This document shows positions 27,963 to 48,290 of a stretch of DNA of 64,000 nucleotides, piece by piece. Source of the stretch: a virus; IMG/VR virus record IMGVR_UViG_3300042691_029560, positions 1 to 64,000 of that record, one strand, 5' to 3'. A program made the position numbers and the translations under genes. The notes beneath the pieces were generated by a model that made no database searches, was not told the origin of the DNA, and saw only the letters and a list, made by a program, of their open reading frames with translations. Positions within the stretch are counted from its first letter, which is position 1; every line of letters starts with the position of its first letter.

Positions 27963-30900
27963 TTAGGTCAGAAGCCTTAGAAGCTTGTTGAACTCTCTGG
28001 ATATATCAGATTGTCCAAATAGCTTAGATCCTGACTTAAAGGAGCGAATTTCTTGGGTAGCGATATCCGCGTCCTTTGAACCAATCTTTTGCTCAACCCT
28101 GCTTGTCATATCATCAAGTAGATCTTTCAGAACAGGGGGGAGGTCACTATATCTAAGTTTCGCGTTTGGATCCTTAAATGGTAGTGGCAGGTTGGCAATT
28201 GTTTTACCTAGTTCTTGCGTAGTTAAACGTATGTTTTCTAGAGATTTAGCATTTAAGGCTCCAGTGTCAAGACGATCAACAGTTCCAATGAGATCTGACG
28301 CGGCTTTAGCAGCCGTACCATAGTCACCAATTTCTGTATAACCTTCTGCCTGAGCCACTTTTCTAGCTACACTCTCTAGACCAGCAACACCTAGGTTAAG
28401 TTTTAGTCTGGCTAGTACCTTACGGAACTTTCCATACTCGTCTCGCGGTTGGTTCTTACCAGGGACGTACTTATCTCCATCTTGAGCATAAGGGCTTATG
28501 TCGGAGTCTTTTTTAACTTCTTCAATAACCTTCTGCTCAATTTCTTCTTGAGTAAGACGCTCATCCACTGGTTGCTTCTCCATTACTGGCTTGTCTTTAG
28601 GCTGAACCCCGAGAGGTTTATCTGCCTTAACAGGAACAGTAGGGAGAGGATTTACAGGACCAACCGCATCAGTTTTTCCCAGGGCCTCCACAGCCGCTGC
28701 AACACGAGCACGAAGTTCATTCGGCTGGGTTGAAGCTGTGATTGACTCTGAAGTAGAAGCAACGTGTTGCTTGTGCCACTTCTCTGGGATTAGATCTGTT
28801 TTGCCAAGAGCCTTAGCACGACGCATAATGTGGCGACGAACCTTGTTTCTTTCAGATTCTTTTGCACGGCCGAATGCTTGAATAGCATTCTTCAGATCCT
28901 CTTCATTACGAATAGGATATGCTCCGTCTGGAAGAGCCTGACGCTTCTTTACGGCTGCATCGCGCTCTGCCTTGGTAATAGCAAAGTTGTCAACGTAACC
29001 ATAAACCTTGTTTGACAATTCAGCACTCCTGGCGGAAAGAACAGCTGCTCTTTCGCTACGGAATGCGTCAAACCTAGCTTTAGCTGCGGCAACCTGAGCA
29101 TCTGGACCATAAAGTTCAGAAGCTTTTAGTTCAGCTAGAGGGCGAGCACCAGCTGCAACAAGGGCCATTACAGCACCTGATGCGACACGGGCACGGGCGA
29201 TTGGGAAGCCAGGAACATTAACCTGGCAGACAGCTACAAGCTCAAGTGAGCCACGGATTGGACGCCAGTCACCTGAAGGAGCAGATGCACGAAGTGCACG
29301 TACTTGCTCAGGGGTTGCGGATGGGCGAAGTCCACCGGCGACCCAGATACCATGTGCATCTTCTCCGGCATGTACGTCAGCAATTGCTGATGCAGTGTCG
29401 TCGTAGTGCTTAACGGCGTCTAGTGCGCTAGCTTCTAGTGGGGCATGGCCTCCCGCAAGCGTGAGTTGACCTACTGGTACATCCTTACCATTGGCAGTGC
29501 GAACAACGCCAGTGTGGAAGTAAGAGTAGTTACTCTTGCTACGGGGAGGTTTGGTGCCGGCTACCAAACCGATATGATCAACGTTCCAAGCTGCAATGTG
29601 ACCAAAGACTCTACCATCGTCAGTAACGGTGATAGGGGTAGGTTTACTTAGCTTAGGATTGTTAAACCATTCAGCAGGTGGCACAACCGGGATAGCTCCA
29701 GCAACTACAGCGCATGCAACAAGCGATGCTGATTCTGGAGAATCCAGGTCTTCGGCATAAATTCCATCTTTTGGAATCATACTTTCCTCCTGGGGGTTTG
29801 CTTCCTCTAATAGGAAGATCTTGCATTCTTGGAACGCGGGCTTTGGCACCATAGTGATTGCCATTACCCGAGCTTTGTTGATAGTGAGTTTGTCTCCACC
29901 AACTTTTTTGTCGTCATCGATATCGATGTCGTTCTCAGTCTTAGCTTTAGAGTCCGATTTCTTTTTCTCTTCTTCAGCTTCAAACTGATCCATATCGGCT
30001 GATACGCCACGGATAAATCCGTTGCGAACCAGACGTTCGGCTTCACGCCCGTACTCGCCGGTATCAAATACGCCAAACGCGTTTCCAATACCTTCTTCTG
30101 TACGCTCCATTCGGTCAATACGACCGACTACGACGGACCCATTGTGTCCATCTGAAGTTCTAACTTGCCACAGCAAAGGAAGTGGCAGCTCACGCATAGT
30201 TATAGAACCTTTACGGAAAGTACGCCCGTCTCCAGTCTCTTTTCCTTCAGGAATAACTAGCGGAATTCTAAATGATGACCCACTTCCGCCCGCTACTAAA
30301 GGAGCAGCCGCAAGAAGTCCAAGTCTTTGTTTAGCGTTGTTTGATCGGGCTAAAAGTTCTAACGAGTTTATAACCATCTCGCTTGATTTAATGACATCGC
30401 TACTAAACATAGCTTTGTTACCGCCACGGCCTTTTCTACCATACATCTCTCTATGACGCTTGTCTCCGGTCCACATGCCAGTCATTTCTTTGTGGCGTAG
30501 AGCACAGTAACCTTTAGCACGTGGGCCTAGGTATTTTTCAAGTTGTCTTACGCAACGAGTCCAGTCACCCTTGGTGTTCCATCTAATCTTTAGACCACCC
30601 TTACCAACAGTCCAGTAGCGGCGTAATTCTTCTGCGTTACCACGGTTGCGATCTAAGCCACCGGCTGCAACAAGAATTTCTTCTCTAGGACCCCAAAGAA
30701 CCATCATCTCGTATTGAAGATACGCTGCAGAGGCAGTGATTCCATCTACTTGCTTTAGAACATCATTTAAAGTTGCGGAATCAAGTGGGACTACAGGTGG
30801 TGGAGTTGCTGACTTAAGATCAGAAAGAGTTTTTTCGTCACGAACCCACTTCTTATCTAAACGACGGTAAATCATAGGAGCCGTAGACGTTGAGCTAGCT

Positions 30901-32949: not shown

Positions 32950-35900
32950 TTACTCCTCATCTTTGGATTCATCAGTAGATTTTTGAACAGCGTTTCCAAT
33001 ACTATATCCGTCCAGAGGGCTCCAGTCTCCGAGCTCTGTCCCAAGAATATAGTCTACAGCTTTTTGAGCCTGGCTAGTTGCGCTAATGATCTCATCTGGG
33101 TTAGATTTTAGGTGCTTTAGCCAACTTTGAACGTAAGCTGCACTATTATCAAATACTGCATCAACGCCAAACATATTACCTAGAAGAGCGGCTCCAATTT
33201 CAGCAATAAGTTCTTCTCTAGCTCTGGACTCTAGATCTGTTTCATAGTCTTTAGTTAGATCTGATCTATCTAAGCGATTTGGATGACCAGTGCTGTGTAC
33301 CAGCTCATGGGCAATGGTATCAAACAGATCTTCAGGAGATTCAAACTGCTCTAGATTAGGAAGGGTCACTTGGTCAGAGATAGTTCCCCAGCTTGGTGCT
33401 TGGTGAGCACCGCCAACTCCAACGTACTTGTGAGTGACGTTAGGTGCTTTTCCAGTTCTAGCGGCCATAGCTTTCTTGTATCTTTCAACAATAAACTCTT
33501 GTGCATCCAGTGGAGTCATCTTAGGAAGAGATTCTGTAGAAAGATCAGGCAAGTTTAGACCATCAATCTGTTCAGCATTGAATACTGCCATAGCTTTGAA
33601 CATGGTGAATGATCTAGTCTTATTTGGGTCTTTCTCATCCTTTTGGACTATACGCATAGGAACAAGAATGAATGTACCCTTCTCACCCTTACGGACTTGA
33701 CCACCCATCTGCTCTGCCTGCTTATAGGTCATCCATCTAGGATCGCTGTACCCGTTTTCTTCTTGAGCAAATCTAAGTGCCATTGCGTTAACACCAGAGT
33801 AGATATGCTTAGAAGATGGGTTTCTAGGCAGACCCATACCAGCGTACTTTTCGCCTTCTTTATAAGGTTTACGCCAAGGAGTCTCGCCCTGCTTAATCTT
33901 TTCAAACAGGCCGGCCATAACTTTTTCTGTGGCAGTTTTGCTGTCAGAAACGACTTTCTTACCAGTACGACTCTTACCACCAGGCTTTTGAGCAAAGCCA
34001 GTTATTTCTGGGTTTTCATCAGATCCCGGGGTTCCAGGCGGATAAGCAGAAGGAGCATCCTCTGGTCTTAAGTTCGTGTCAGGGTTCCAGCTACGTGGGC
34101 CAGGATATCCTGGAACACCAGCCTGCTCCATCATGTCAACAGAGCTGTTAATCCATGGAGGAAGAACATCATTACCTAGTACAAAATCTACAGCTATCTC
34201 TGCTTCGGCCATAGCTTTAGTTATTTCAGCGTCACTTAAGCGGTGAGATTTTAGGTACTCAGCTGTTCTATTTGGATCATGGTTAATTCCTAGACGCTGT
34301 AGTAACAGCTGTGATGCAATTTCAGCCACAGCTTCTTCCCTAGCTCTTTGCGGATCGGTAACACCTCTTCCAGCAAGATGGCCTTCTCTTCCAAGTCTAC
34401 GTCTAGTTCCGCTAGCATGGGCAAGTTCGTGGAATAGACTGTATAGATAATCCTCCGGACTATCGTACTTACTTCTATCCGGAAGCCTAATTGATTCAAC
34501 ACCTTCACTTACAGACCAGAATGGAGTTATAGGTTTTCCTTTATTAGGTCCTTCTTTTGTCTCAATACCAATCAGATCTTCGTAGACCTTTAGTCTTCCA
34601 GATCCACCACGCTTCTTTTCAGCTTCAGCAAATCTACCAAGAACGAATTCCAAAGCCTGAGAAGCTGTCATTTTTTGCTGCTGCTTAGGGTTGTATGGCT
34701 CTAATCCATCCATCTGAGCTGCGTTAAACACAGTCACAGGAGTCTGAACAAGTACACGTTCTCCGGTATCCTCGTTTTCAATAGTGCGGAATGTCATAAT
34801 CCGAACACCCTGCTCACCATCACGTATCTTTGCGCCCATTTTTTTAGCCTGAGCTACAGACATCCATCTTGGATCTGTATATCCTCTCTCGGCTGCAGCT
34901 GCGGCAAGTGCGTGGTGGTTTATACCACTGTATTGGTGCTCTGAAGATGGGTTGAATGGCATGTTGCTAGGATTAACCGGAGCAGACATTGGGTCTTCAG
35001 CAGGATACTCAGAGTATGGTTTGTCGTAATCACCTGTACGATATGGCCTAGGGTTTTTAATACGCTCACGGAAAATGTCAAGCATCTTGGCTGCAGCTGA
35101 TTTATTATCAGCTACGGCTTTAGCTTTCTTTTCTTCAAAAGTTTTAGCTGGAACGGTTTCAGATGGAAGCGTTTGAGCAAAGCCATCTACATCTTCACCG
35201 CCCCTAATTTTGTCATCTTTTAGTGCAGCGTCTGCAGCATCTAAATTATCAGTAAAGTCTTTAGCAACCTTATCAACGGTAGGAGCTTCAATAGCTTTTG
35301 GAGTAGCTGGTTTCTTTGGCTTTAGATCTTCTGGGTGATTTTTCTTCCAACGATCTTTAGCAATTCTTGCAGCAAGTTTTGCTTTCTTAATTGCAGCAGA
35401 TAGCTCAGAGATAGCAGCCATCTTCTCTTCAACGCCCTTAGACTTCTTCAAGTTGTCGATAGCTTTTTGTAGATCGGCTTTGACGTAACGCATGTTGTTT
35501 ACGAATTCGCCGACGTTGTTTACATCTTCACGAACCTTGGAGGTCTTACCCTTCCATTCGTCAAATAGACCTAGGGCGTTGCTTAGCGAAGCTATAGCCT
35601 CTAAAATACGGTGAGGACGCTTAGGTTGTTTTCCACCAAGCTGAGCAAATCCAGCTTCATCTACTCCAGCAGGAAGTATTTGAGTGTTTTTACCTGGAGT
35701 TTGTGCAAAACCTACGTTATCTGACTTAGTGTTGTCAGGGGTCTCTACTAGGTCGAGCTCTACAGTTAAGTTTCCATTTGAATCTTCTTTAACTGAAGTA
35801 ACCTTAAATTTTGAATTTCTTGGTAATATAACTTCATCTTCAGCGTATCTAGATAATGCAGACCCCATAGAATATCCGGTTAATTTAGATCCTTTAGGCG

Positions 35901-38271
35901 AAAGTGCATATGTTATTGATTTGCCAGTAAGTCGATTTCCGGTGAGTGCCTGTACAGGATTTACAAATAAATCAATCGAGTTTAAATCTGTAGAAGTTGA
36001 CATAAAGCCAGGGTCAATAAATTCAGCTCCAGGGACTAAAGCCTTTTTAGCTTTTTCAAAGTCATCTAGTCCCCTACGAGATTCACCAAGTGTAACTACT
36101 TTTCCATCACTAAAAAACTCTCCTCTAAACAATCTAGAAGCTATTAGGGGATTTTTTGAAGTTAAAGAGTCTAGCCCACGGACTACAGATTCTTGATCTT
36201 TAGGAACAGGTGTACCAGTCCTTAATGCTTTATTTATAGGTATATAAGCTGCACGAGTGCTATATTTTCTAGCAGCACTTGACTCATCTTTTGTAATAAC
36301 ATCTTTTGAAGATAAGCCTTTAGACAGATCTGCTGGTGGAGTAAATGTAGATTTTCTAGCTTTAAGTTGTCGCCAATCAAAATCTCCGGACTTCATTTTA
36401 AAGAAATCGTTGTCAGATAGGAAATAGTATCCAGCCTGAATTACGTCAAACGTATCTGCATTTTCTTCATCTTCTTCATCAGCATCTTCATCAAAAATAG
36501 ATTCGTTTAGACTAATACGATACAGTCCAGTGTTAGAGTCGGATGGATTTCCGGTTACTTGATCAAGAGTAATTCCTGTAAACTCTGCTTCATCACTTCC
36601 AAGAACTTCTTTACCGGGTTCTGCATACCTGCTAGTTACTGATCTATTCAAATCCTGAAATCCTAGGGGAAGAGTGTCACTGTCAATAGACACATTAAAC
36701 TTAGTCTTGTCCCCACGTTTTAAAGTTTTATTTTCCAGTGTTACTGTTCTGCTACCGTCTGAAGACTCTACAGACTTTCTAGAAGACTCTAATTTTTTAT
36801 CTTCTTCGGCAGCTTGCTCACGTAGTTTTTGTCGTAAATCCTCTCTAGCTGCTTGTAATTTTAAAAATTTTGAACTATTTGTATATTCTCTAGTGTCTTC
36901 ATAAGACACGTAATCATCAATTTCAGCACCTTCAAAAGGTTTTTTTGGATCAGCATTAAGCCTTTTTTCTAAAGATTCTTTAGTTACAATTGCATATTCC
37001 GGAGCTATTCGCTCTGCTTCAACAGCTTCCCACCCAATATCATCTCCCTCTTGCATCTCGTATTCTTCTTTAGACAATCCATTTTCATCTAATTCAACAG
37101 GGTAGTCGTTATCTTTAAATTCTTCGGTTCTAAAAATAAATTTATCTTTGTCTTCTTCTTTACCAGTGATGTCAAATAAAGTTACTCCAGTGTACCTAGA
37201 TGGAAATCTTTCTAGCCTAGGTTCTTCACCAAAACCAATATCGTCACCGAGATAGTCTGTGAATCCAGTGACTCCCTCAAAATGTTTTTCATAATCATCT
37301 AGCCCGGTGCCCGACTCATAAGATCTGTCAAGTGGATACCAATCTCCTGGATTAATTTTGTTTCCGGAAGATAGAGTTATAGGAGTGTCTCCAAATACAT
37401 CTCCCTGTACCTTGTTAAATCCAGGTTTTCTAGGTTTAGAAAATTTTCCTTCTTTTTGAGCAAAGCCGTCGTAATCAACGGTGTCGAACTCAGCGGTTCT
37501 AAGCATGATTTGACGTTCAGCTTCTTTAAAAGCTTCACTTGCGTCAATTCCAAGATCTACTTTTTCTTTAGGCTTGTCGCTAAAAGTAGCGGTAAATCTG
37601 CCACCCTTTTCCAAAATGTCGGTGACTAGACCGTTTTCCTCACGAGTCCAACGACTAATGTCTTTTTTAGCGTCTTTCTCTGTAGTAGCATCTACAAACT
37701 TACGTTCCGCCGCTGTTTCATTGAACTTGCCGGCTCTTTCAGATCCAGCTGCTTGTGCAAATCCTTCAGAGTCTTCTGGAAGAAGCTCAGAATCAAAAAA
37801 TACATCTCTCGGCAAGATAGTATCTTGATTTTCAGCAATTTTATCTAGCTTTTCTCTAGGAGCTACATATTTTCCGACTCTTCGAAGTTGAGTCTCATTT
37901 CCCGGAGAATCTTGAGAATTTACAATTCTTACTGGGACATACTCGACTCCGGCTTTACGAGCCGCGGCTAGTCTATGGTTACCTTCAGTAATAAATGCTT
38001 TACCATTTTTAGGGTTGAGCACTACTATAATTGGCTCTTTAAAGCCGATGCCTTCTTCTAGATCTTTGGCAATGCTGTCTACCGTACTCTGCTCACGAAT
38101 CTCATTACCTTCAGCTCCAATTAGAGCTTTGGTATTTACGTACTGAACTACCGATTTTCCATCAGATTTATAATCTTGTAGGTTAGGATTATACTTTTTA
38201 CTGTATTCAGCATCTACCTCTGTACTAGGTGTCTGTGAGAACCCACGGTCCCCCTTTTCGGGGGTTACGCT
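32950..38271 (-). CDS. Polyvalent protein, C-terminal part (reached by -1 frameshift): ParB/Srx-like domain, ADP-ribosyltransferase, 2x ArdC-N + zincin metallopeptidase
   Basis: Frame is open from the slip site. ParB motif FKEPIIVV...EGNHRLAAA; ART motifs Y..IN..LR / LFRG / GFMSTS / EDEVILPR; ArdC motifs NPSS.H.YSG.N...DPRWM...Q.....G..VRKGEKG...VFNA.Q.DGL; HELAH and HELVH. Confidence 0.88.
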   Translation of the reverse strand, partial: SVTPEKGDRGFSQTPSTEVDAEYSKKYNPNLQDYKSDGKSVVQYVNTKALIGAEGNEIREQSTVDSIAKDLEEGIGFKEPIIVVLNPKNGKAFITEGNHRLAAARKAGVEYVPVRIVNSQDSPGNETQLRRVGKYVAPREKLDKIAENQDTILPRDVFFDSELLPEDSEGFAQAAGSERAGKFNETAAERKFVDATTEKDAKKDISRWTREENGLVTDILEKGGRFTATFSDKPKEKVDLGIDASEAFKEAERQIMLRTAEFDTVDYDGFAQKEGKFSKPRKPGFNKVQGDVFGDTPITLSSGNKINPGDWYPLDRSYESGTGLDDYEKHFEGVTGFTDYLGDDIGFGEEPRLERFPSRYTGVTLFDITGKEEDKDKFIFRTEEFKDNDYPVELDENGLSKEEYEMQEGDDIGWEAVEAERIAPEYAIVTKESLEKRLNADPKKPFEGAEIDDYVSYEDTREYTNSSKFLKLQAAREDLRQKLREQAAEEDKKLESSRKSVESSDGSRTVTLENKTLKRGDKTKFNVSIDSDTLPLGFQDLNRSVTSRYAEPGKEVLGSDEAEFTGITLDQVTGNPSDSNTGLYRISLNESIFDEDADEEDEENADTFDVIQAGYYFLSDNDFFKMKSGDFDWRQLKARKSTFTPPADLSKGLSSKDVITKDESSAARKYSTRAAYIPINKALRTGTPVPKDQESVVRGLDSLTSKNPLIASRLFRGEFFSDGKVVTLGESRRGLDDFEKAKKALVPGAEFIDPGFMSTSTDLNSIDLFVNPVQALTGNRLTGKSITYALSPKGSKLTGYSMGSALSRYAEDEVILPRNSKFKVTSVKEDSNGNLTVELDLVETPDNTKSDNVGFAQTPGKNTQILPAGVDEAGFAQLGGKQPKRPHRILEAIASLSNALGLFDEWKGKTSKVREDVNNVGEFVNNMRYVKADLQKAIDNLKKSKGVEEKMAAISELSAAIKKAKLAARIAKDRWKKNHPEDLKPKKPATPKAIEAPTVDKVAKDFTDNLDAADAALKDDKIRGGEDVDGFAQTLPSETVPAKTFEEKKAKAVADNKSAAAKMLDIFRERIKNPRPYRTGDYDKPYSEYPAEDPMSAPVNPSNMPFNPSSEHQYSGINHHALAAAAAERGYTDPRWMSVAQAKKMGAKIRDGEQGVRIMTFRTIENEDTGERVLVQTPVTVFNAAQMDGLEPYNPKQQQKMTASQALEFVLGRFAEAEKKRGGSGRLKVYEDLIGIETKEGPNKGKPITPFWSVSEGVESIRLPDRSKYDSPEDYLYSLFHELAHASGTRRRLGREGHLAGRGVTDPQRAREEAVAEIASQLLLQRLGINHDPNRTAEYLKSHRLSDAEITKAMAEAEIAVDFVLGNDVLPPWINSSVDMMEQAGVPGYPGPRSWNPDTNLRPEDAPSAYPPGTPGSDENPEITGFAQKPGGKSRTGKKVVSDSKTATEKVMAGLFEKIKQGETPWRKPYKEGEKYAGMGLPRNPSSKHIYSGVNAMALRFAQEENGYSDPRWMTYKQAEQMGGQVRKGEKGTFILVPMRIVQKDEKDPNKTRSFTMFKAMAVFNAEQIDGLNLPDLSTESLPKMTPLDAQEFIVERYKKAMAARTGKAPNVTHKYVGVGGAHQAPSWGTISDQVTLPNLEQFESPEDLFDTIAHELVHSTGHPNRLDRSDLTKDYETDLESRAREELIAEIGAALLGNMFGVDAVFDNSAAYVQSWLKHLKSNPDEIISATSQAQKAVDYILGTELGDWSPLDGYSIGNAVQKSTDESKDEE

Positions 38272-38277
38272 TTTGGG
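38250..38277 (-). other. Programmed -1 ribosomal frameshift signal
   Basis: In-frame C CCA AAA heptamer (38277-38271), 6-nt spacer GCGTAA, hairpin CCCCC-GAAAA-GGGGG (38264-38250). Confidence 0.82.
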
Positions 38278-41200
38278 GAGTTCGCACCTCTACGCTTTAG
38301 AGTATCAATAAGTCTTTGAATCTCGTCAGCAGACTTGCTGTTCAGGTTCGTGATTCCAAGCTTACGCTTCTCTGCAGAAGTCAGACCAAGAGAGTTAGCC
38401 AGATCCTTGACACGCTTAAGTTGTCTAGGAGTTGGCTTACCGGTGTCGACGCCAGCCTTAGGGTTTAGAGCCCTAAGTTGTCCAAGCATTGCACCCATCT
38501 GAGCCTTAGTCAAGTTTTTACTTGATAGGGCATCTTGAATTGCAGTAGCTAGTTCTGGATCGATGCCGTCTCTGTTGCCACCAAGTTCCTTGAGGTAGTC
38601 ATACTGAGCGTCAGTAGCTGGCTCACCCATCTTAGGTGATACAACTGCGTTGCCAGGTTCTTGAGAAAAGCCGTCAGAATCATCATTAACATCATCATAA
38701 TAACCTCGGCTGTTTTCAGCATCTTCATCAACAAGATCGCTGTTGTAGTAGTCTAGCTTTTCATTAGCAAATGCTAGGGCTTCTTCTTTAGAACCAAAAG
38801 TCTGAGAACCTTCGTCATATTGGAATTCTGCATCTTTATCCATGTATTGATACGAGTGATCTACTTCCCACTCACCGTCGCCCTTATACCAGACCTCAAT
38901 CTGACTGTCAGAGTAAGGGTCTGTAGTATAACCACCATCGCTGTTTTGACTTAGTTTGTCATCCCTAACTGGAGTGCCTTTTCTGCCAGGTTCTTGGGCG
39001 AAACCACCCTGATCTTTCTTACGGTTTTTCTTATCTAGAATTCTCTGAGCACGATCTACAAAATCACTAAGAGCATATCTAAACTCATCTGATACTCTAG
39101 CATCACCAAAGTCCTCATAAAGCCTTGCCATTCTATCGATAAACTCTTGCTCAGTACCATTTTCAATAGCTGTTGAAAGTTCTTTCTCTAGATTTGCTTC
39201 CGAGAAGTTTTGAGATAGATTTGAGTTATAGTCAGCTGCTTCGTTAGCTGCCCACTCAATCGCGTCATCGCGGTCATCAAACTCTTGCCTATCATACGCA
39301 GAATCTCCGCTATCAGAACCATAAGTAATTCTAGCTTCGTACTTACCATTCTCGTTTGGCTCATTGTCAATGTTGATTTCTGCTCCACCGCTTCTGTAGT
39401 CTCCCCAGTAACCATCATCTGCAGCTTCTGCAATCTTATCGGCATCTGTTGAATAGTAAATTTCTCTAGCAGTAGCCATTTCATCTTCAACGTCAGATAG
39501 ATCTAAGTTTCTTAAATCGTCAGGATCTCTAAGAGCTGCTCGTATTCCAGCACGATCTTCAATTCTCTTAATAACTTGATCTCTCAGGTTATCGAGCTCG
39601 TCTGCCAAACTAGAGTCACTAGAATTATCTCTTCTAAGTCTAGATACAACATCTTGAAGATCGGAAGCAAACATGTAAGACTGCTCTACAGCCCAGTCTT
39701 TACCATATTTTTTATTGTCTGGATTGTCTGGATCTGACTCTGCTAACATTTCTCTCAAGTTGTCGCCGTCTAACATAAGGAAAGTGTCCTCATTTGCAGC
39801 GTCAAGTCTTCTTGCAAGCTCATCAATTCGCTCACCCTTTAGAGAGTTGTAGTAAGCATCCATCTCACCAGCAACTTCGGCAGGTCCGCTTTCTGTAAAG
39901 TCGTCACCAGCACGGTCGCGGTTGAACTGCTCTTCTCCAGGAATGCCTGGCTCCTGAGCAAAGCCGATAGTCTCTGGACGATCCTTCTTTCTACGAAGCT
40001 TGTCGTTTAGAGCATCTACTTCAGCACGGTTCATGTTTGGTAGGTTGTCTAGGATGTCCTTGACTTCTTCTGGAGTTAGGTCCTTGGTCACAAGCTTGCT
40101 GTTCAATGACTGAAGAGCACGGTCGCTTGGCTTGTTAGGGTCGACGCCCGGTTTGAACGGAGCATCACGCATAGGGCCAATAAGTGCACTCATCTGTGCC
40201 TTAGTTAGGTTCTTGTTCGCAAGAGCTTCTGTAATTGCCTGAGCAGTTAGGTCGTCAGCTGGAACTCTTTCATCAGCGTACTCTTGTAGAAGAGCATACT
40301 GAGCAGGAGTTGCAGGTTCCATCTGCTTAGCAGACAAACCTCCAGTTTTTTCCTTGTTTTGCTTCTTATTGCCGTCAGCAATCTGCTTACGTAGCCATTT
40401 CTCGGCTGCCTCTGGACTATTGAATGATTTACTAGTAGTATTTCCTAGTCCATTTCTATTTTCAGGATTAGCGTATTTAGCAAACCATCTGTTAGATTCT
40501 GTACCGTCTTCATTTTTATAGACGCCATACCTAACGTCAGATATGTTACCGTTGGCATCTTTATAAACTACGCCTCCTACTTTATCGACAGACTTAAGAT
40601 CTAAAGCGTTTGGGTCCTCTTCTAATAGATCGGAACCGGTTCCTGGTTCTTGGGCGAATCCACCGCTCTTATCTTCACGGAAGAAGTCATAGTCTTCACC
40701 ATTGTTTAGACCAATCGTATCAAACCATTCACCAGGTCCAAAGCCTGATTCTTTGTCTGCTTCTAGGAATAGCTTATAAGCTAGTACTTCACTATGGTAG
40801 CGACTAGGTTTTTCAATAGCTCCCTTAATCTCTCTACCGTTGTACCCATTAGCAACTGCCATATCAGCAATTAAATTGTAATAGCTGTATGGATCACTTT
40901 CGGCGAGACCATTTAGATAATCATCGTTGTAGCTCATAGCATTTTGTACTAGATCGCTAAGTTCTTCATTGTCATAGTCACCAGCAAGTTCAGAAAGTTT
41001 TTCCGAATCAAAATAACCATCGTCTTCTGCGCCAAGAGCACTTAAAATTTTATTAGCATCTTCTTCGCTCTTTGAGAAAAGATCTTTGTTAATTTTATCT
41101 TGCTCGTCCCAGGCATTCTGTACGTCAGATGCAAGGCCGGCAAGTTCACCATCTTGAGGAAGGTACTTAAATTGCTTAGATCTTGCAGCCCAACCAAATT

Positions 41201-44200
41201 GAGCTTTTTGTTGTTGAAGATCTCGGATTTCATCTCTATTATCAGATTTATCAATTTTACCCTGAAGAATATCTTCAGCTTCTTTGACAGCTCGATTTAC
41301 TTTATCACGTATTGGCTTATTAGCTGCTTTAGGAGTAAAATCAATTCTACCCTTTGGATAGTTTGTCCAAGCATAGTTTTTAGCTGGCTCTTCGCCACCA
41401 GGACGTTGAGCAAAGCCTTCACCTTCAGAGCCAAAACCAATCTCGTTTAGCCAGTGATCATTGTTCTGATCCTCAGCCCAGGTGTTCATTTCTGCGTCAA
41501 GAACATAGTCATGATAGTTATAAGGTTTCTCAATCATACGTTTGAACTCAGATGGGCTTGCATTTATAGCTTCAGCAGCATTCGCAATTTTGTAGAAGTA
41601 TTCAGCAGGATTTGTACGAGCTAAATTGTCTAGGTAGTTTTCATTTAGCTCTTTAATTTCCTGAGCAGCTTCGTAGTCTTCATCATCCTCGTCTAGACCG
41701 CCGTCTTCAATAAAAGCATACTTCTCAACAAGTCTCTTAGCTAGAGCTTTGTTCTTTGCTCTAACTTCTGGGCTTGGTCCGTTTCCAGGTGCTTGACCAA
41801 AGCCTCCGTAATCAAGATCGGCAGCGTAATCCTCTGCGTCCTGATTTACTTCCATACTGTTGTAGTAATTAAGTTTTTCGTTAGCAAATGCTAGAGCTTC
41901 TCCCTTAGTGTCGAAGGTCTTAGAGCCTTCGTCAAACGGCAACTCTCCTCTAGATTTGTCCATGTGAATGAACTGGTGGTTTACTTCCCACTTACCGTCA
42001 TTGGTAGGGTTGACTTCAATTTGACCTGGCTCACCAAAAGTAGTGCTAAGAGAACCGTCGTCACTCGTAATCAATTTGGAATTGTTTATAGGAGTATATT
42101 TTCTGCCAGGTTCTTGAGCGAAACCTCCGGACTCAAGATCAGCGGCGGCATCTTCTGCATCTGAGAATACCTTGTCACCGTTGTAGTAGTCTAGTTTTTC
42201 GTTAGCAAATACAAGAGCTTGCTTTATAGAATCAAACTTCTGAGAACCTTCGTCAAATGCAAACTCATTTCCAGAGCGTGCCATGTGGTTGTACGCGTGG
42301 CTTACTTCCCATTTACCGTCATCAGTAGGGTTGACTTCAATTTGCTTGTTAGAAGTTGGACTAGTACTGTAACCACGATTGCTAGTTGGCTGTAACACTT
42401 CTGGTTTGCCAGTTGCTTGAGCGAAGCCAGCTGCAGGAGATTCTCCGTTAGCGTCTCTAAGAGCTCGATCAATAGCCTCAACAGCGTCTTGTTTAGCCTT
42501 AAGTGGGTCACCAAACCCTAAGTTAGCTTTATCAATGTCTTCGATTGCTTGTCTAATTTCATCTTCGTAGTCTGGAACAATGTCTACAGGCTTACCATCG
42601 AAGGTGACCACAAGGAAATTACCGTCAGGATCTCCTTCTACGACTACCTTTAGGCGTCCGTCTGCAGAAGTAAAGTTTCCGCTTCTATCCCAGAGATCAG
42701 GATTGTCAGCTGCCTTACGGTCAATCTTAGGAGTGTAGCTAATTGAAAGATCTGCACTCTTGCCAACCTCAGCAAGAAGCTTGCCCATCTCGCCTTTGGT
42801 TAGGGCCTTGTTAGCAACGGCTTCTTCAACCATATCGCGAACGTCGGTTGGAAGTTTTTCACCTTGGTTATCTAAGATACCCTGAAGCTTGTTGTACTGT
42901 AGGGAGCTAGCTGGGTCTTTAGTCCAGGCTGGTGGCTCGTCGCCAGGTTCTTGAGCAAAACCGCCCATCTCGTCTGGAGACTTTCTAGCGTTTCCTTCAA
43001 GTTCTGAGAACAGACGTTCGCCGTCTTCAAGTGCCTTGTCTAGATTATCTGTAGGTTCACCCTGGCCCATAATTTCACCATTACGGTTGTAGGCGATAGG
43101 GGTAATCATACCCTTGTCTTTTTCTAGACGTACAATTCCACCATCTTCTGTTTCTGCAGTAGCAGCAAAGAAAATATCACTATCTGGATATAGAAGGAAT
43201 TTTCCGCGTTTATTTGAAGACTCACCAGGCTTTTGATCAAATCCACCGGTTTGCTTCTTTAGGAATTTGTCAACTAAAACACCTACGTCTTTTGCTAGGT
43301 CTGCTGAATCGTAGCCCCAACCAATGTAAGGAAGCTCACCAACCCATTCGCCATCGTAAGATACAGAAATACGAGATAGGTTTGTACCACCAAATCCCAT
43401 GTCTGGTTCTCCATCTGCCATTGACTCAAGAGTCAATCTTCCATCTGGAGACTTGTAGGTAGCGTCATTACCGCCTTCAGGATCTCCGAACCAGTGGCTT
43501 AGGTTGGCAATGTGAGCCTCGTCAACTCCACCAGCTTGGCCGGCTGATTGGGAGAATCCTTCGATATCATCGGTTCTTTCACCGTACTTGATATTCGGTC
43601 CGCCTCTAAGAAGTTCTTTAAGATCCGAAACAATTTCTTCTGCTTCTCTTTCAACACCTTCAGGCTCCATGTCTGGGTATCGAGAACTATCGTCAACTAA
43701 AACAAAATTCTGTACGTAGCCAATTGGTTTTCCATCATAACTAACTTCCCAGTCTCCACCTTCTACATAGGCAGAAGCAGCTCCTTTATTGGTTTCATAG
43801 TCATAATCACCAGATTTGTCTACATATTTTATTTCAAGTTTTCCGTCCTTAGACTTCCACTCGTCTCTAAAATCAAAACTACTGTCAAGTTCACCAGAAT
43901 AGTCTTTGGCTAAGTTACGTCGCTTAGGACTGCTATTAAGGTGCTTTGAGATTACATTCTCAATTTCATCAGCATAGTCGTCAATATCCATGAGCTCGAT
44001 TGGTTGAGAGTATGGTCTATCGATGTATCTAACAGGCTGTCCATCTTCTAGATCTATAGTATATTTTTCCCCATCAACAGATACTTCTAGATAAGATGTA
44101 TCGACTGCAGGATCATCTGCATAATAGCCAGCATCAGCGTCTCGGACGTAAGTAATCTTAATTCTTCCATCTCTAGAAACCCAGGTACGGTCCTTAAATG

Positions 44201-47200
44201 CTTCGGCAGACCAGTTGGCGTCTTTAAATGCGTCTACTGGAAGCTTATATTTTAGAGGCTCATCTTCTCCAGGCGCTTGAGCAAAACCTTCAATGTCATC
44301 TTGACCAGGAAGATCTGCTAGAGAAATGTCATTTGCAGCCTTTTCTGCTGCACCAATGCTCTTGAAGTTTGATGACGCACCTAGTTCGCCACCATCCTGA
44401 GAAATTGGAGTTACGTCCCAGGTACCATCGCCCTTAGGTGTGTAACGCATCATCAAACCTTCAGAGTTTTTCTTCAATAGGTTTGGACTTGCGTCTTCCC
44501 AGCCGTTGGTGTCTGGCATACCCTTTAGACGAGTAATGAGATCTGAAGCTTCATCCTTGGTCATCTTTGGAAGACGCTTGCTTAGATCAGCGGCTTCTTT
44601 AGCAGGAAGACCCTTAGAAATTAGACCACGGCGGATAGACGCTAGTTGTCTATCTGAAGGTACGTTGGTGTCAACGGCCTTTCGCATCTCACCAATTACG
44701 GCACCAATTTCGCCCTTAGTTGCTTCTTTGTTTGCAAGAATATCTTGCATAGACTTACGAAGTTCTTCTGGAAGTTTGTCACCCTGCTTTTCTAGGATGT
44801 TAGCTACGAATCCACGCTGGGCATCGGTTGCTGGGTCAGAAGATTTTCCACCCGGTTCTTGACTGAAACCAGGCATTTGATCATAACCTTCAAAGCCATC
44901 AACGTCATAGTAATCCCGATCATTTGATTTAGCTTGAGCGTTACCAAAAGCTTCGTCAAGCGCACCTATTTTTCCGTCTTCACCTTCACCATAGTTTTTA
45001 GGGTCATAGCCATCACTAAACTCGCGCTCTTTGTCACCACCAAATGGACTTTTAACGAGACTACCACCTACAACATCAACAGTACCGTCGGAATACTGAG
45101 TTATCTCAGCTGAACCGGCGTCACCTTCGTAGAACCAAACACGTTTTCCTGCTGCTTTATCGGATTCAGACGTTATTTCTTTGAAGTCTTTTCCGTAAGC
45201 CTTAACAAGATCGTCAACGGTATTAATTTCTGGTTCATTGCCAGGTGCTTGATAGAAGCCATCTCTTTCCCAGTCTTCAGGACCCTCTGGTGGCTCTGGT
45301 GGATCGTAGTCACTCTCTCCAGCACCAAATATACCTGCAATATCGTCCATGGAAGAGCCCAAAGGAAGTGACTCATAACTAGTGTCTACATCTTGACTAG
45401 GTGGCTCATCCCAGCCTCCAGGATTGTATTTACCGGCAGTATATTGAGTTAATTCGGCTGCTCCACCAGGATAAATTTCTAGTTCTGCGTACTTGTAGTT
45501 ATCTTCACTACCTAATGTTAGAAATATCACACCATCATCATCAGGGAATACATCTCCTGAATACCCGTATTCCTCTGCAAGATTTTTAATAGCAGCTAAC
45601 TCTTCATCAGAATAAAAAGAACTCTCAGAAGACCCATTTTCATAGTCGTCATATTTTTTAAGTTGAGCAGCGATTACATCGTGGTACTTAGCGTATTCAG
45701 GGTCCTCTAGCAAAGATTTCATTGCTTCTGCATCTAAATCCTTGAAAGACGTAAATACTTTAGCTTTTAATCCACGGTTGTACTTAATTTGCTCAATTTT
45801 GGCCTCGCGAGCCTTTTTTACATCTGACTTAAGTGGTTCTAAGCCATCTTTTTCACGTTTTTTATTTTTTGGAAATGCAAAGATTCCTTCTATATCATTC
45901 TGGGATCTTAAGTTATAACCATACTCACTGCTTAAAACACCAACACCAATGGTGTCTCCACTGTAGTACCTTTTACCAGCATTTTCTCCTTCGGTAATAT
46001 TTATTTCAAAATTACTCGGGTTAGGATTATTTTCTTGTCCACTCCAAGGCGTATATACAATCTCGTGGCCATAAGCTGACCATTTTCTAATGCCTTTGGC
46101 AGCATCTTCGGGGGTGGTAACTTCTACTGCATCATACTTTTTTGCAAAATCGTCAAGATTAATATTCTCCCCACCAGGTGCTTGATCATAGCCATAAAAA
46201 TCGCGATTGTCGCGATCCTCGTCGTATGTGTCTGGCTCATCATCAGAATTATCGTAGTTTTCATAACCCTCATCCATCAGTCCAGCTAAGTCGTCTAAGC
46301 TAGAACCGGCTGGAATACTATTTCCATCACTTCTAACGTCAGCATCTGCTGGGCTATCCCAGGATGCTGCATAACGCTTTGCAACATAAAAGTTTTCTAG
46401 GTCTGCGGATCCATCTGCACGTACAATTAGCTCAGCCCATGCGTCTCCAGCGTCATCGCCTTTTACTAGAGATATATATGGTTCTTCTCCTAAATATTCA
46501 CCTCTAGGTAAGCCGTAACCAAACTCATCCATTAATTTTTGAATATCCTCGAGTTCTTTATTTGTCCAGTACGGGCTATCAGCTTCCCCTGCTTCATATG
46601 CCTTTGCTTTTTCTAACTGCTTACTAGCATAATCATGATGTGCCGCATATTCAGGATTGTCGAGTACTGACTGGATCTGCTCAATAGATCCAGTATTAAT
46701 TCCACGATATGCGCGAATTTCAGCTACATCTTTAGGGGATATTCTTTGAGCTTTTGATACGAGCTCTTCCGCATTTGCAATTGCACGATCTTTTAGTTCG
46801 GTGCTTTCATATGCTGCGTTTTTCTTGTTTTCCAGATTTTTTTGTAGTGCTTCTACGTCGCCAAATCGAACAGCTTTTTGTCGATCGTAATATGATTCAA
46901 AATTATTGTAGAATTTAGGATCACCGTATTCAAAAACACCATAGTCGTACTCTTTCTCACCAGGAGCTTGCTCGAAGCCTTCATTATTTTCTAATAGATC
47001 CTTAGGAGATAGTTTTTTATTTCTGCCAGGTTCTTGAGCGAAGCCCTTAGCTGGCTGCTGTTTGCGTAGACGTGCTTTTGCTTTTGGAGCCTTACCCTTA
47101 CCAGAGTCATTATCTGCGGCAAGCTTTTGAAGGTTTGCCCATTCCTGAGCGTAGCCAACAAAATCTCCAAATTCATCTGACAAAGAAAGTACAGGTTTGT

Positions 47201-48290
47201 TTGAATCATATGAGCCATCAGGACCAGCACCAATAAATTTTGAGCCCGAAGGTGCTTGCTCGCCGGATGGAAGAGTTGAAACAGAGTAGCCGTCTGCAGA
47301 CGTAAAGGTGCCATCACCATTGTCAGTCCAACCAGTTGGAGCAGACTTGCGGTTTGCTAGAAGTTCTTGTAGTGGAATTGCGTAACGTGAGTTTTTAGAG
47401 TCTGCCTTAAATGCTGGAGCTTCTCCAGTTCTAAGAATAGCTTTTAGACCTTCTACCTTAGATGCAGGAACAGAATAGATACCTGATGGAAGATCGGCTC
47501 CTCCTCCAGAAATTTCAACTTCAATCCTGTCGCTGTCTTGTGGGTTACCAGCAAACTTACCAACGAACGACTTAATCATGTCGCCAATCATGGCAAATAT
47601 ACGAGATCCACCACCCATCTCAGCAAATCGACCCTTACGGTCACGACGTTGCAACTTGGCACGTGCAGAACGTGCTGCTGAAGAGTTATTTCCAGCGAAT
47701 GGGTTTCCGATACCAAAAGCAGCGGTAATTGCTTGAATCTTAATGTCTGCTGGAACAGAAGCAGTTAGTGCCTCTAGACGTGCAGCAGCGTAGATGCTCT
47801 TGCTACTTCTTGGCTGTTGAACAAATGCCTCAAAGACTGCTTTACGTACAGACTCGTCAGTGATGCGTGGGTCGTAGGAAACCCAAGCAGCATTACGGAC
47901 GCGACGTGCAGATGCAGTAATCGGGCCAACGGTTTTTGTTGAGTACGGGTGAGCACTAGGGAGTAGGTCCCTAAACTCTACTACCGGAGCTTTATTGGAA
48001 GCCGGACCGTCGATAGCGTAGTCAACAAAATTGGTTACTTCACGCGCAGCGTGGAAGAAAATGTCTCGAGGGTCTTCGATGTCTAGTTTGCTTGCAATGT
48101 AACGATCTGTGTAGTTAAGAACGTCTTTTAGTGCTACTTGTCTTACCGAGGCAACTAACGCGTTTCTTTCAACAACGTAGTTTATAACGCCTCTCTTAAA
48201 GATCTGCTCACTCTCGGTGACAGTTATTTCTAGATCTTTTTCACTTAAGCTCTCTAGAGCAGCAACTAGGGGATTCAAATTTTCACTCAC
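38265..48290 (-). CDS. Giant acidic modular head-module protein (3341 aa), N-terminal part of the polyprotein
   Basis: Long ORF between Dps and the protease; 18 G[FY]xQxPG-like linkers separating duplicated D/E-rich modules. Confidence 0.88.
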   Translation of the reverse strand: MSENLNPLVAALESLSEKDLEITVTESEQIFKRGVINYVVERNALVASVRQVALKDVLNYTDRYIASKLDIEDPRDIFFHAAREVTNFVDYAIDGPASNKAPVVEFRDLLPSAHPYSTKTVGPITASARRVRNAAWVSYDPRITDESVRKAVFEAFVQQPRSSKSIYAAARLEALTASVPADIKIQAITAAFGIGNPFAGNNSSAARSARAKLQRRDRKGRFAEMGGGSRIFAMIGDMIKSFVGKFAGNPQDSDRIEVEISGGGADLPSGIYSVPASKVEGLKAILRTGEAPAFKADSKNSRYAIPLQELLANRKSAPTGWTDNGDGTFTSADGYSVSTLPSGEQAPSGSKFIGAGPDGSYDSNKPVLSLSDEFGDFVGYAQEWANLQKLAADNDSGKGKAPKAKARLRKQQPAKGFAQEPGRNKKLSPKDLLENNEGFEQAPGEKEYDYGVFEYGDPKFYNNFESYYDRQKAVRFGDVEALQKNLENKKNAAYESTELKDRAIANAEELVSKAQRISPKDVAEIRAYRGINTGSIEQIQSVLDNPEYAAHHDYASKQLEKAKAYEAGEADSPYWTNKELEDIQKLMDEFGYGLPRGEYLGEEPYISLVKGDDAGDAWAELIVRADGSADLENFYVAKRYAASWDSPADADVRSDGNSIPAGSSLDDLAGLMDEGYENYDNSDDEPDTYDEDRDNRDFYGYDQAPGGENINLDDFAKKYDAVEVTTPEDAAKGIRKWSAYGHEIVYTPWSGQENNPNPSNFEINITEGENAGKRYYSGDTIGVGVLSSEYGYNLRSQNDIEGIFAFPKNKKREKDGLEPLKSDVKKAREAKIEQIKYNRGLKAKVFTSFKDLDAEAMKSLLEDPEYAKYHDVIAAQLKKYDDYENGSSESSFYSDEELAAIKNLAEEYGYSGDVFPDDDGVIFLTLGSEDNYKYAELEIYPGGAAELTQYTAGKYNPGGWDEPPSQDVDTSYESLPLGSSMDDIAGIFGAGESDYDPPEPPEGPEDWERDGFYQAPGNEPEINTVDDLVKAYGKDFKEITSESDKAAGKRVWFYEGDAGSAEITQYSDGTVDVVGGSLVKSPFGGDKEREFSDGYDPKNYGEGEDGKIGALDEAFGNAQAKSNDRDYYDVDGFEGYDQMPGFSQEPGGKSSDPATDAQRGFVANILEKQGDKLPEELRKSMQDILANKEATKGEIGAVIGEMRKAVDTNVPSDRQLASIRRGLISKGLPAKEAADLSKRLPKMTKDEASDLITRLKGMPDTNGWEDASPNLLKKNSEGLMMRYTPKGDGTWDVTPISQDGGELGASSNFKSIGAAEKAANDISLADLPGQDDIEGFAQAPGEDEPLKYKLPVDAFKDANWSAEAFKDRTWVSRDGRIKITYVRDADAGYYADDPAVDTSYLEVSVDGEKYTIDLEDGQPVRYIDRPYSQPIELMDIDDYADEIENVISKHLNSSPKRRNLAKDYSGELDSSFDFRDEWKSKDGKLEIKYVDKSGDYDYETNKGAASAYVEGGDWEVSYDGKPIGYVQNFVLVDDSSRYPDMEPEGVEREAEEIVSDLKELLRGGPNIKYGERTDDIEGFSQSAGQAGGVDEAHIANLSHWFGDPEGGNDATYKSPDGRLTLESMADGEPDMGFGGTNLSRISVSYDGEWVGELPYIGWGYDSADLAKDVGVLVDKFLKKQTGGFDQKPGESSNKRGKFLLYPDSDIFFAATAETEDGGIVRLEKDKGMITPIAYNRNGEIMGQGEPTDNLDKALEDGERLFSELEGNARKSPDEMGGFAQEPGDEPPAWTKDPASSLQYNKLQGILDNQGEKLPTDVRDMVEEAVANKALTKGEMGKLLAEVGKSADLSISYTPKIDRKAADNPDLWDRSGNFTSADGRLKVVVEGDPDGNFLVVTFDGKPVDIVPDYEDEIRQAIEDIDKANLGFGDPLKAKQDAVEAIDRALRDANGESPAAGFAQATGKPEVLQPTSNRGYSTSPTSNKQIEVNPTDDGKWEVSHAYNHMARSGNEFAFDEGSQKFDSIKQALVFANEKLDYYNGDKVFSDAEDAAADLESGGFAQEPGRKYTPINNSKLITSDDGSLSTTFGEPGQIEVNPTNDGKWEVNHQFIHMDKSRGELPFDEGSKTFDTKGEALAFANEKLNYYNSMEVNQDAEDYAADLDYGGFGQAPGNGPSPEVRAKNKALAKRLVEKYAFIEDGGLDEDDEDYEAAQEIKELNENYLDNLARTNPAEYFYKIANAAEAINASPSEFKRMIEKPYNYHDYVLDAEMNTWAEDQNNDHWLNEIGFGSEGEGFAQRPGGEEPAKNYAWTNYPKGRIDFTPKAANKPIRDKVNRAVKEAEDILQGKIDKSDNRDEIRDLQQQKAQFGWAARSKQFKYLPQDGELAGLASDVQNAWDEQDKINKDLFSKSEEDANKILSALGAEDDGYFDSEKLSELAGDYDNEELSDLVQNAMSYNDDYLNGLAESDPYSYYNLIADMAVANGYNGREIKGAIEKPSRYHSEVLAYKLFLEADKESGFGPGEWFDTIGLNNGEDYDFFREDKSGGFAQEPGTGSDLLEEDPNALDLKSVDKVGGVVYKDANGNISDVRYGVYKNEDGTESNRWFAKYANPENRNGLGNTTSKSFNSPEAAEKWLRKQIADGNKKQNKEKTGGLSAKQMEPATPAQYALLQEYADERVPADDLTAQAITEALANKNLTKAQMSALIGPMRDAPFKPGVDPNKPSDRALQSLNSKLVTKDLTPEEVKDILDNLPNMNRAEVDALNDKLRRKKDRPETIGFAQEPGIPGEEQFNRDRAGDDFTESGPAEVAGEMDAYYNSLKGERIDELARRLDAANEDTFLMLDGDNLREMLAESDPDNPDNKKYGKDWAVEQSYMFASDLQDVVSRLRRDNSSDSSLADELDNLRDQVIKRIEDRAGIRAALRDPDDLRNLDLSDVEDEMATAREIYYSTDADKIAEAADDGYWGDYRSGGAEINIDNEPNENGKYEARITYGSDSGDSAYDRQEFDDRDDAIEWAANEAADYNSNLSQNFSEANLEKELSTAIENGTEQEFIDRMARLYEDFGDARVSDEFRYALSDFVDRAQRILDKKNRKKDQGGFAQEPGRKGTPVRDDKLSQNSDGGYTTDPYSDSQIEVWYKGDGEWEVDHSYQYMDKDAEFQYDEGSQTFGSKEEALAFANEKLDYYNSDLVDEDAENSRGYYDDVNDDSDGFSQEPGNAVVSPKMGEPATDAQYDYLKELGGNRDGIDPELATAIQDALSSKNLTKAQMGAMLGQLRALNPKAGVDTGKPTPRQLKRVKDLANSLGLTSAEKRKLGITNLNSKSADEIQRLIDTLKRRGANSPKA

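Follow-up and report, generated by a model that had tools for sequence, protein, structure and literature searches.

What is the role of a short peptide that recurs 25 times along the product of one locus in a phage head-gene cluster? The question is raised by a 64,000-nt stretch of viral DNA, referred to below as the window (positions 1 to 64,000 of IMG/VR record IMGVR_UViG_3300042691_029560). The complete record (sequence G000) comprises 92.7 kb, and the window represents its minus-strand structural module. The source is an uncultured, siphovirus-like, actinobacterial phage from a lake. Two open reading frames (ORFs), ORF A and ORF B in the −1 frame, together encode a giant protein whose modules are separated by a linker of the type G-[FY]-x-Q-x-[PA]-G, abbreviated here GFxQ. 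This linker is a real, selected peptide signal located in disordered joints at module borders. Tentatively, it is read as a protease recognition site that would be cut by the polyprotein's own ArdC-type HExxH zincin and not by the prohead protease.

A selected peptide in disordered joints

Listed broadly as G-[FY]-x-Q-x-x-[GSP], the linker is present in 25 copies, 18 in ORF A and seven in ORF B (Table 1). A preliminary description, made from the letters of the window, had counted about 25 copies of G-[FY]-x-Q-x-P-G with the same distribution on either side of a frameshift, and those it had placed are recovered within ∼10 nt. Across the 5120 residues of A and B, the string G[FY].Q occurs 27 times, against 1.07 in shuffled sequences (maximum of five in 2000 shuffles), and the strict form G[FY].Q.PG 17 times against 0.0045. 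When the window and the complete record are scanned in all six frames, no further linker-type copy appears, in line with the earlier remark that no other protein of the window carries the motif. Some look-alike strings were rejected. GYAQEWA (A379), considered as a linker copy or an ancestral cleavage site, lies in a confident strand-helix junction of the folded N-terminal domain and is conserved in motif-free relatives too. GYVQNFV (A1524) is a G[FY]xQ string that is not counted as a linker copy, and GYDQDGT of the Dps/ferritin-like protein, a conceivable 26th copy, is attributed to chance because its orthologue reads GYDNEG, without the Gln.

Comparison of orthologues reveals which positions are maintained. 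At aligned motif sites, identity reaches.86 for the first G,.81 for F,.86 for Q and.89 for the last G, while it is.42 and.33 at the x positions, 56% at Pro (which alternates with Ala) and.3–.5 in the flanks. The close relatives P0003 and P0004 possess 17 and 25 linker copies, respectively. In the window, the residue after Gln is E, A, K, R, M, S, T or L, and the acidic residues said to precede the motif usually do so, with D or E at position −3 in 17 of the 25 copies.

The preliminary description also stated that codons vary and that conservation is therefore at the protein level. Variation is indeed observed, and identical motif peptides share only 84% of their nucleotides, but codon choice is biased. 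The first Gly is encoded by GGC in 12 of 25 copies (22% gene-wide), Gln by CAA in 22 of 25 (61% gene-wide) and Pro by CCT in 15 of 19 (46% gene-wide), with p ∼0.003 in each case. In the relative G001 the GGC bias recurs (12 of 20, against 22–23% gene-wide), while the CAA and CCT biases do not. In our own reading, the bias reflects sequence context or shared descent of the linkers rather than a function at the DNA level, because the peptide core survives F/L exchange and full rewriting of its tail in other lineages.

The location of the copies agrees with domain borders drawn with Pfam and PHROG, as proposed earlier for the surroundings of ParB, the end of the ADP-ribosyltransferase (ART) domain and the start of the ArdC units. 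The ParB-like domain is bracketed by the copies at B16 and B176, the ART domain ends (B853) seven residues before the copy at B860, and the two ArdC units follow the copies at B1036 and B1431. In ORF B, Pfam recognizes ArdcN (2.8e-49, two stretches), MPTase-PolyVal (1.1e-44, two stretches) and ADPrib_exo_Tox (1e-11). Many modules of the giant protein are paralogues. An AlphaFold model of A1940-2310, weak overall (mean pLDDT 51, three-row alignment), contains two beta-beta-beta-alpha-alpha modules and a helical module with pLDDT of 66–81, and all four motif copies lie in coil between modules with pLDDT <50. The N-terminal domain of ORF A is modelled with confidence to residue 398 (mean pLDDT 76.6), and the copies at A416 and A438 are located in a disordered stretch past its end. 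Thus, none of the copies examined by AlphaFold forms a structural strand inside a folded domain, an arrangement that the preliminary description had named as contrary to its proposal. Disorder-type residues are more frequent in motif flanks (.69 vs.59) and hydrophobic residues less so (.19 vs.26).

Frameshifting and variation of the joint among relatives

The 3′ end of ORF A reads tcC CCA AAA gcg taa, in which the heptamer fits the X XXY YYZ pattern. The downstream hairpin comprises five GC base pairs, and a 61-nt stretch folds at −17.8 kcal/mol, with a z-score of only −1.4. The open −1 frame of ORF B is closed just five codons upstream of the heptamer. These features mark a predicted programmed −1 frameshift that would join ORFs A and B. 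The 3341-aa product of ORF A would be the main product, and slippage at C CCA AAA would give rise to the 5113-aa A-B form, which adds the ParB domain, the ART domain and two ArdC-N/zincin units to the cargo. ORF B is read as part of this fusion, since its first motif copy, GFSQTPS, lies ahead of any start codon and can be made in no other way. The chain of ∼5100 residues proposed earlier is thus supported by the heptamer, the spacer and the hairpin, and by maintenance of the site in relatives.

In the IMG/VR contigs L111, L112, L114 and L115, the A gene ends with [NA]PKA and the sequence C CCA AAA GCN TAG. In the first three contigs, a −1 ORF of ∼780 aa follows the slip site with the order motif-ArdC-motif-ArdC, and in L115 a −1 ORF of 176 aa with a partial ArdC match is ended by the end of the locus. 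In P0004 (4795 aa), the A and B parts are fused in frame. The C-terminus PKA is found in 7 of 151 database representatives, and the lineages with PKA and the slip site reach such distant proteins as P0013, P0014, P0016, P0019 and P0020. About as many representatives end in KKA, which suggests a slip site of the A AAA AAR type. Frameshifts of the Gag-Pol type and −1 frameshifts of phages share with this locus the heptamer, the spacer and the stem-loop, as well as an enzyme-bearing extension on the predicted frameshifted form; here, however, it is a head cargo protein that is extended, and not a capsid or tail chaperone protein.

At least 272 of 1.84 billion representative proteins are related to the giant protein through its N-terminal domain; most of the 150 listed have a length of 1.5–7 thousand aa. 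The repeated joint is confined to the closest groups of these relatives, each with its own version: GFxQxAG in P0009 and P0010, GF[ND]QGER in P0011 (the only lineage with Gly after Gln), G[FL]DQxxG in P0019, GLDQ[DA]A[PK] in P0018 and P0020, GLGQxxP in P0013, P0014 and P0016, and P-D-L-x-Q-D in P0060, P0082 and P0091. After the conserved stretch RRKKD[KR]P, the joint reads GFAQEPG, GFAQGER, DLNQGVS or ELNQNIS depending on the lineage, which indicates positional orthology. The durable core in the wider clade is therefore [F/L]-x-Q, in which Gln stands two positions past a bulky hydrophobic residue, with the surrounding residues drifting together in each lineage, and it is kept between lineages whose N-terminal domains are only 30–40% identical. 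No repeated joint motif is seen in the other members examined, including DSL-LC01, Pumpernickel and Atuin, the latter with PEPE-rich linkers.

A scan of IMG/VR for the GFAQEPG DNA pattern gave 98 hits, against ∼90 expected by a rough estimate of our own from the information content of the pattern (not computed by the tool), and multiple copies were found only in contigs of the P0004 type. A metagenome scan with the three-protein alignment and viral scans with P0001 (first scan), P0082 and P0013 found nothing. In an unrelated phage (IMGVR_UViG_3300032731_000802; L057:5578-7782, plus strand), a 734-aa portal protein has a Gly-rich disordered C-terminal tail with the sequence GFAQEPG-GIG-GFAQSPG. 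This match may stem from chance and local duplication, or it may point to a role of the peptide inside capsids more widely.

Candidate enzymes and competing explanations

Two kinds of protease only were found in the record, namely an S78-like domain in a 1584-aa fusion protein and the two HExxH units of ORF B. PHROG scans of ten of the larger remaining ORFs name no further protease, chymotrypsin-like families not having been specifically searched and small ORFs being unscanned. The S78-like domain occupies residues ∼810–970 of the fusion, and its His858 and Ser906 are invariant in 29 homologues, although the Pfam Peptidase_S78 match (E=0.005, 17.4 bits) is below the cut-off of 21. PHROG gives two hits in the fusion, a family annotated 'portal protein' and a 'head maturation protease', the latter at residues 1008-1202, adjoining the S78-like domain. 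A profile of the fusion matches nothing among PDB sequences or in NCBIfam. We also recognize, in our own reading, a MuF-like part and a scaffold-like C-terminus. A second very conserved domain occupies residues 1030-1190 (29148-29628; GHIAAW...HAGED..GIWV...PGFPIARA) and has no Pfam, NCBIfam or PDB sequence match; the 'head maturation protease' label of PHROG falls on this domain.

The proteins expected to be processed by this protease share another motif. [ILVM][TV]A[SAG][AGSV] is 6- to 21-fold enriched in the portal, the Dps protein, the N-terminus of the giant protein, the protease fusion and the capsid protein (Table 1). In 140 giant proteins, the first 250 aa contain 232 occurrences against 12 expected and the remaining several hundred thousand residues 42 against 49, and 120 protease fusions contain 636 against 45; these numbers overstate significance, since the motif was defined after the sequences had been viewed and homologous sites do not count independently, although the trend itself is clear. 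ITAGA at capsid residue 194 (27231-27245) marks the boundary at which resemblance to other capsid proteins starts. G001, DSL-LC01, Pumpernickel and Atuin all retain it, and it is a likely maturation site. LVAAG, at residue 1186 of the fusion, is present in every one of 28 homologues. The layout of [ILV]-[TV]-A-[SAG] is that of the herpesvirus assemblin sites (V/L-x-A↓S, where the arrow marks the cut; YLQA↓T and VQA↓S in PrV, PMC4498786), and it occurs in the expected S78 substrates. This resemblance concerns [ILV]-[TV]-A-[SAG] and not the GFxQ linker, and the position of its cut is itself inferred. The motif is probably the cleavage code of the prohead protease, which would trim the capsid protein, the scaffold fusion, Dps and, in the giant protein, only the first ∼180 residues.

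The N-terminal domain that contains these residues is the probable capsid-incorporation part of the giant protein. Foldseek finds no PDB match for its model. Its core of ∼90–120 residues (A199-319, containing RRDRKGRFAEMGG) also begins a second, smaller protein of DSL-LC01. The Dps protein has a 220-aa C-terminal extension in which DLLPHTHP...PLVASA resembles DLLPSAHP...PITASA of this domain (BLASTP E=0.07 only), an element nearly invariant in the N-domain family, and the protease-fusion homologues P0226 and P0265 carry a fused ferritin domain. Together, the shared element and the ferritin-protease fusions suggest that Dps is loaded into the head.

Evidence concerning the zincins comes from their distribution. 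All motif-bearing lineages with a readable C-terminus (the window, P0004, P0009-11, L111, L112 and L114) have at that end two ArdC units with intact HExxH, and a motif copy precedes each unit. By comparison, six motif-free relatives with ArdC have a single unit. This association weakly favours the zincins. Zincins generally prefer a hydrophobic residue at P1′, immediately past the scissile bond, which is why the cut would be expected before Phe or Leu of [F/L]-x-Q. Cleavage at the joints would release ∼26 pieces of 6 to 585 residues, either inside the filled head or after injection. Cleavage is a plausible and the most economical reading of the motif, though unproven, and the assignment to a zincin is made more weakly than cleavage itself.

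Several points weigh against cleavage by a zincin. The link between two zincins and the motif may stem from one ancestral event and would then amount to roughly a single observation. An ArdC zincin without any linker motif occurs in seven database relatives and six loci, so that the enzyme does not need the motif; the simple rule that presence of a zincin entails presence of the motif is ruled out by the same cases. We know of no sequence specificity of ArdC-type zincins. Plasmid ArdC and N4 vRNAP travel uncut, and delivery in one piece is described for some polyvalent proteins that contain a zincin (PMC5512222); most of the giant-protein family lacks the linker motif, so that an uncut chain evidently works. 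Furthermore, a cleavage product is on record for neither this phage nor any related phage. Also, the [ILV][TV]A[SAG] motif that directs attention away from the prohead protease was defined post hoc, and its role as an S78 site is itself deduced from sequence. A more elaborate scheme, frankly speculative, would have two orthogonal codes in one capsid. The assemblin-like [ILV]-[TV]-A↓[SAG] would be read by the prohead protease during assembly, to trim capsid protein, scaffold, Dps and the targeting part of the cargo. The other, x↓[F/L]-x-Q, would be read only by the cargo's own ArdC zincins, which bind single-stranded DNA and would be activated by DNA once the head is filled or at entry, thereby releasing ∼25 short-lived effectors that start with Phe or Leu, a bacterial N-degron.

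The preliminary description had named both the HExxH domains and the prohead protease as candidate enzymes, and the former now fit better, by association only. If the S78-type protease cut after Gln, with a hydrophobic residue at P3 and Gln at P1, it would dice the cargo inside the prohead, much as T4 gp21 (L/I-x-E) and the phiKZ and SPN3US proteases (A/S/G-x-E) act on their substrates. The giant gene adjoins the S78-like domain with its invariant His and Ser, the [F/L]-x-Q layout parallels the L/I-x-E of T4 gp21, and giant phages cut many packaged ejection proteins at such motifs (PMC9026906, PMC10052503). However, the substrates of T4 and giant phages, including the protease itself and the capsid protein, share one consensus (PMC9026906, PMC10052503), just as S78 or assemblin substrates would share a motif between protease polyprotein, scaffold and capsid. 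GFxQ does not behave in this way: in both phages examined, neither the capsid protein nor the portal nor the protease fusion contains it, and each of 121 fusion homologues has 0–1 occurrences, at the level of chance. Moreover, linker-free relatives have capsid proteins 54–69% identical to that of the window, and the protease region is 51–88% identical across the 120 homologues listed. Dicing by the prohead protease is therefore unlikely, because its expected substrates carry another enriched motif and never GFxQ. A complex prediction with the protease region (P0006 805-1195) and the linker A2757-2800 scored 0.02 and carries no weight either way.

The serious rival to cleavage by a zincin, less probable yet well worth retaining, is that the motif is never cut and acts as a short binding motif, the ∼25 repeats tethering the protein to the capsid interior, the portal or the scaffold, or multivalently engaging a host protein. 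Short linear motifs typically have this make-up, one hydrophobic anchor and one polar residue between glycines in a disordered linker. Tails that differ by lineage are as compatible with a co-evolving binding partner as with a co-evolving protease, and most relatives apparently work as uncut chains. The portal tail of the unrelated phage also fits, as the C-terminal tail of portals faces the capsid interior, but that match came from a motif search and could be chance with local duplication. Against this reading, the conserved N-terminal domain already accounts for incorporation. Cleavage after injection by a host protease, for example a cytoplasmic housekeeping enzyme of the actinobacterial host, is improbable. 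It would accommodate the fact that neither phage protease is directly tied to the motif, and restriction of the motif to one phage clade whose host group may be common, but no bacterial protease is known to have [F/L]-x-Q specificity, and the lineage-specific tails change fast among closely related phages. Equally doubtful is a motif without function of its own, inherited with duplicated modules, homogenized by gene conversion or serving as a DNA-level joint for cassette shuffling. Paralogy of many modules and the codon bias (GGC, CAA and CCT in the window, GGC alone in G001) would be explained, whereas conservation limited to G, F, Q and G among varying x positions and flanks, the joining of domains as unrelated as ParB, ART and ArdC, survival of the core through F/L exchange and complete rewriting of the tail, and the 84% nucleotide sharing of identical peptides would not. 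Transglutaminase action (Q-x-P), mimicry of SSB tails, Gln modification and translational pausing, as further candidates, find no support in the data.

Known systems and genomic setting

The A-B fusion combines several unrelated effector and DNA-binding domains, including ArdC-N and MPTase-PolyVal, as is characteristic of polyvalent proteins, for which processing by zincin domains was proposed by Iyer, Burroughs, Anand, de Souza and Aravind in 2017 (PMC5512222). The likeness resides in ArdC-N, the MPTase-PolyVal zincin, ART and ParB, brought together in one phage-encoded head-region polypeptide. What differs is the conserved joint peptide, the −1 frameshift and the dedicated N-terminal domain, and most modules here are small and of unknown function. 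A linker or cleavage motif is not described in that paper, from which the word 'linker' is absent, and no literature search was aimed at the motif itself. The polyvalent character recognized in the preliminary description is substantiated by the ParB, ART and two ArdC-N/zincin units and by a gene placed between the portal and head-maturation genes. In the summary given in PMC5512222, DdrB and DarA of phage P1 are head-packaged anti-restriction proteins, and DdrB, which has a C-terminal zincin, is processed before packaging; the product is a single 76-kDa polypeptide, and that summary mentions no repeated motif.

Head and ejection proteins of T4 and of giant phages are cut at the short motifs L/I-x-E and A-x-E (PMC9026906, PMC10052503). 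Substrates of T4 gp21, phiKZ gp175 and SPN3US gp245 are comparable in that proteins packaged in the head are cleaved at a very short motif and lose a targeting part, and here the N-terminal 180 residues share a motif with the capsid protein and the scaffold fusion. In those phages, one code with a cut after Glu serves all substrates, whereas the present system has a second cargo code, [F/L]-x-Q, absent from capsid, scaffold and protease. An invariant Gln in a short repeated polyprotein joint also recalls picornavirus 3C and potyvirus NIa (TEV) sites. This likeness, put forward earlier, proves weak: sites of these enzymes have Gln at P1 and a small residue (Gly, Ser or Ala) next to it, and the residue after Gln is not small here.

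These comparisons define what the clade offers. The 2017 prediction that polyvalent proteins are split into their effector domains still lacks a defined cutting site, for which this clade supplies an explicit short candidate. Beyond the repeats themselves, the analysis traces the motif across the family and reduces it to a minimal core, describes a conserved frameshift with tandem ArdC units, and recognizes a distinct motif of head proteins that speaks against the prohead protease. Natural controls exist in sister phages that have similar capsid genes but lack the site, and in lineages whose tails have been rewritten. The two candidate enzymes are separable by simple mutants, which makes processing directly testable with recombinant fragments in E. 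coli. If confirmed, the assemblin-like motif would tell at which sequence a large family of actinophage maturation proteases cuts, and would help to predict which proteins are loaded into these heads. Should the chain stay uncut, GFxQ would remain a short, clade-specific motif under strong selection in a capsid cargo protein.

On the minus strand, the gene order is terminase, portal, Dps/ferritin-like protein, ORF A, ORF B, 1584-aa fusion, major capsid protein and tail genes. The polyvalent-type gene is surrounded by terminase, portal, capsid, tail and adaptor genes, and so is phage-encoded. Packaging of the giant protein in the head and its injection are suggested by this context only, the gene being located between those of the portal and the maturation protease, and a motif of head proteins recurring in its N-terminal domain. 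The record is possibly incomplete (92.7 kb, against ∼126 kb in relatives).

Table 1. Coordinates of the genes, domains, recoding signals and motif copies in the window (numbering of the whole stretch; residues of ORFs A and B given as A and B numbers)
Feature	Details	Position	Strand
Terminase		54469-55881	−
Portal		49509-51269	−
Dps/ferritin-like protein		48381-49499	−
ORF A	3341 aa; conserved N-terminal domain (1-398), then 18 linker-delimited modules; no Cys	38265..48290	−
N-terminal domain of ORF A	helical 24-191, beta-rich 228-381; [ILV][TV]A[SAG] at residues 45, 124, 175	47097..48290	−
GFAQEPG	A416	47025..47045	−
GFEQAPG	A438	46959..46979	−
GYDQAPG	A700	46173..46193	−
GFYQAPG	A1011	45240..45260	−
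GYDQMPG-GFSQEPG	double copy, A1135 and A1141	44850..44888	−
GFAQAPG	A1335	44268..44288	−
GFSQSAG	A1578	43539..43559	−
GFDQKPG	A1683	43224..43244	−
GFAQEPG	A1777	42942..42962	−
GFAQATG	A1955; coil, pLDDT <50	42408..42428	−
GFAQEPG	A2056; coil, pLDDT <50	42105..42125	−
GFGQAPG	A2163; coil, pLDDT <50	41784..41804	−
GFAQRPG	A2292; coil, pLDDT <50	41397..41417	−
GFAQEPG	A2544	40641..40661	−
GFAQEPG	A2776; after conserved RRKKDRPETI	39945..39965	−
GFAQEPG	A3096	38985..39005	−
GFSQEPG	A3207	38652..38672	−
Slippery heptamer C CCA AAA	predicted −1 site, in frame in ORF A, two codons before TAA stop	38271..38277	−
Hairpin CCCCC-GAAAA-GGGGG	6-nt spacer after heptamer	38250..38264	−
ORF B	−1 frame, 1779 aa stop to stop	32950..38289	−
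GFSQTPS	B16; 9 residues (SVTPEKGDR) past slip-site Lys	38224..38244	−
ParB-like domain	B41-128; PHROG	37906..38169	−
GFAQAAG	B176	37744..37764	−
GFAQKEG	B275	37447..37467	−
ART domain	B663-853; Pfam/PHROG	35731..36303	−
GFAQTPG	B860	35692..35712	−
GFAQLGG	B880	35632..35652	−
GFAQTLP, then ArdC-N and zincin unit 1	B1036; HELAH at 34417-34431	34000..35184	−
GFAQKPG, then ArdC-N and zincin unit 2	B1431; HELVH at 33295-33309	32953..33999	−
1584-aa fusion protein		27963..32717	−
Major capsid protein	598 aa; N-terminal extension acidic	26028..27824	−
[ILVM][TV]A[SAG][AGSV], portal	2 observed vs 0.16 shuffled	50982-51143	
[ILVM][TV]A[SAG][AGSV], Dps	1 observed vs 0.07 shuffled	48591-48605	
[ILVM][TV]A[SAG][AGSV], giant protein A	3 observed (all residues 45-179) vs 0.32 shuffled	47754-48158	
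[ILVM][TV]A[SAG][AGSV], protease fusion	8 observed vs 0.38 shuffled	29148-32504	
[ILVM][TV]A[SAG][AGSV], capsid protein	4 observed vs 0.35 shuffled	26997-27326	
[ILVM][TV]A[SAG][AGSV], six tail-region proteins	293-3136 aa, 7569 aa total; 2 observed vs ∼3.5		

Megablast of ORF A against GenBank phages gave no match, and tblastn with its N-terminal domain retrieved DSL-LC01 only. The capsid protein is 69% identical to that of the Actinomycetia phage DSL-LC01, a metagenome-assembled lake phage, 54–56% to those of large Microbacterium phages and 46–47% to those of Arthrobacter phages. In all of these capsid relatives compared, a giant protein is encoded directly after the portal. The 5113-aa fusion lacks cysteine altogether, and 0–2 Cys residues are found in most members of the giant-protein family, a scarcity that may relate to unfolding and passage through the tail.

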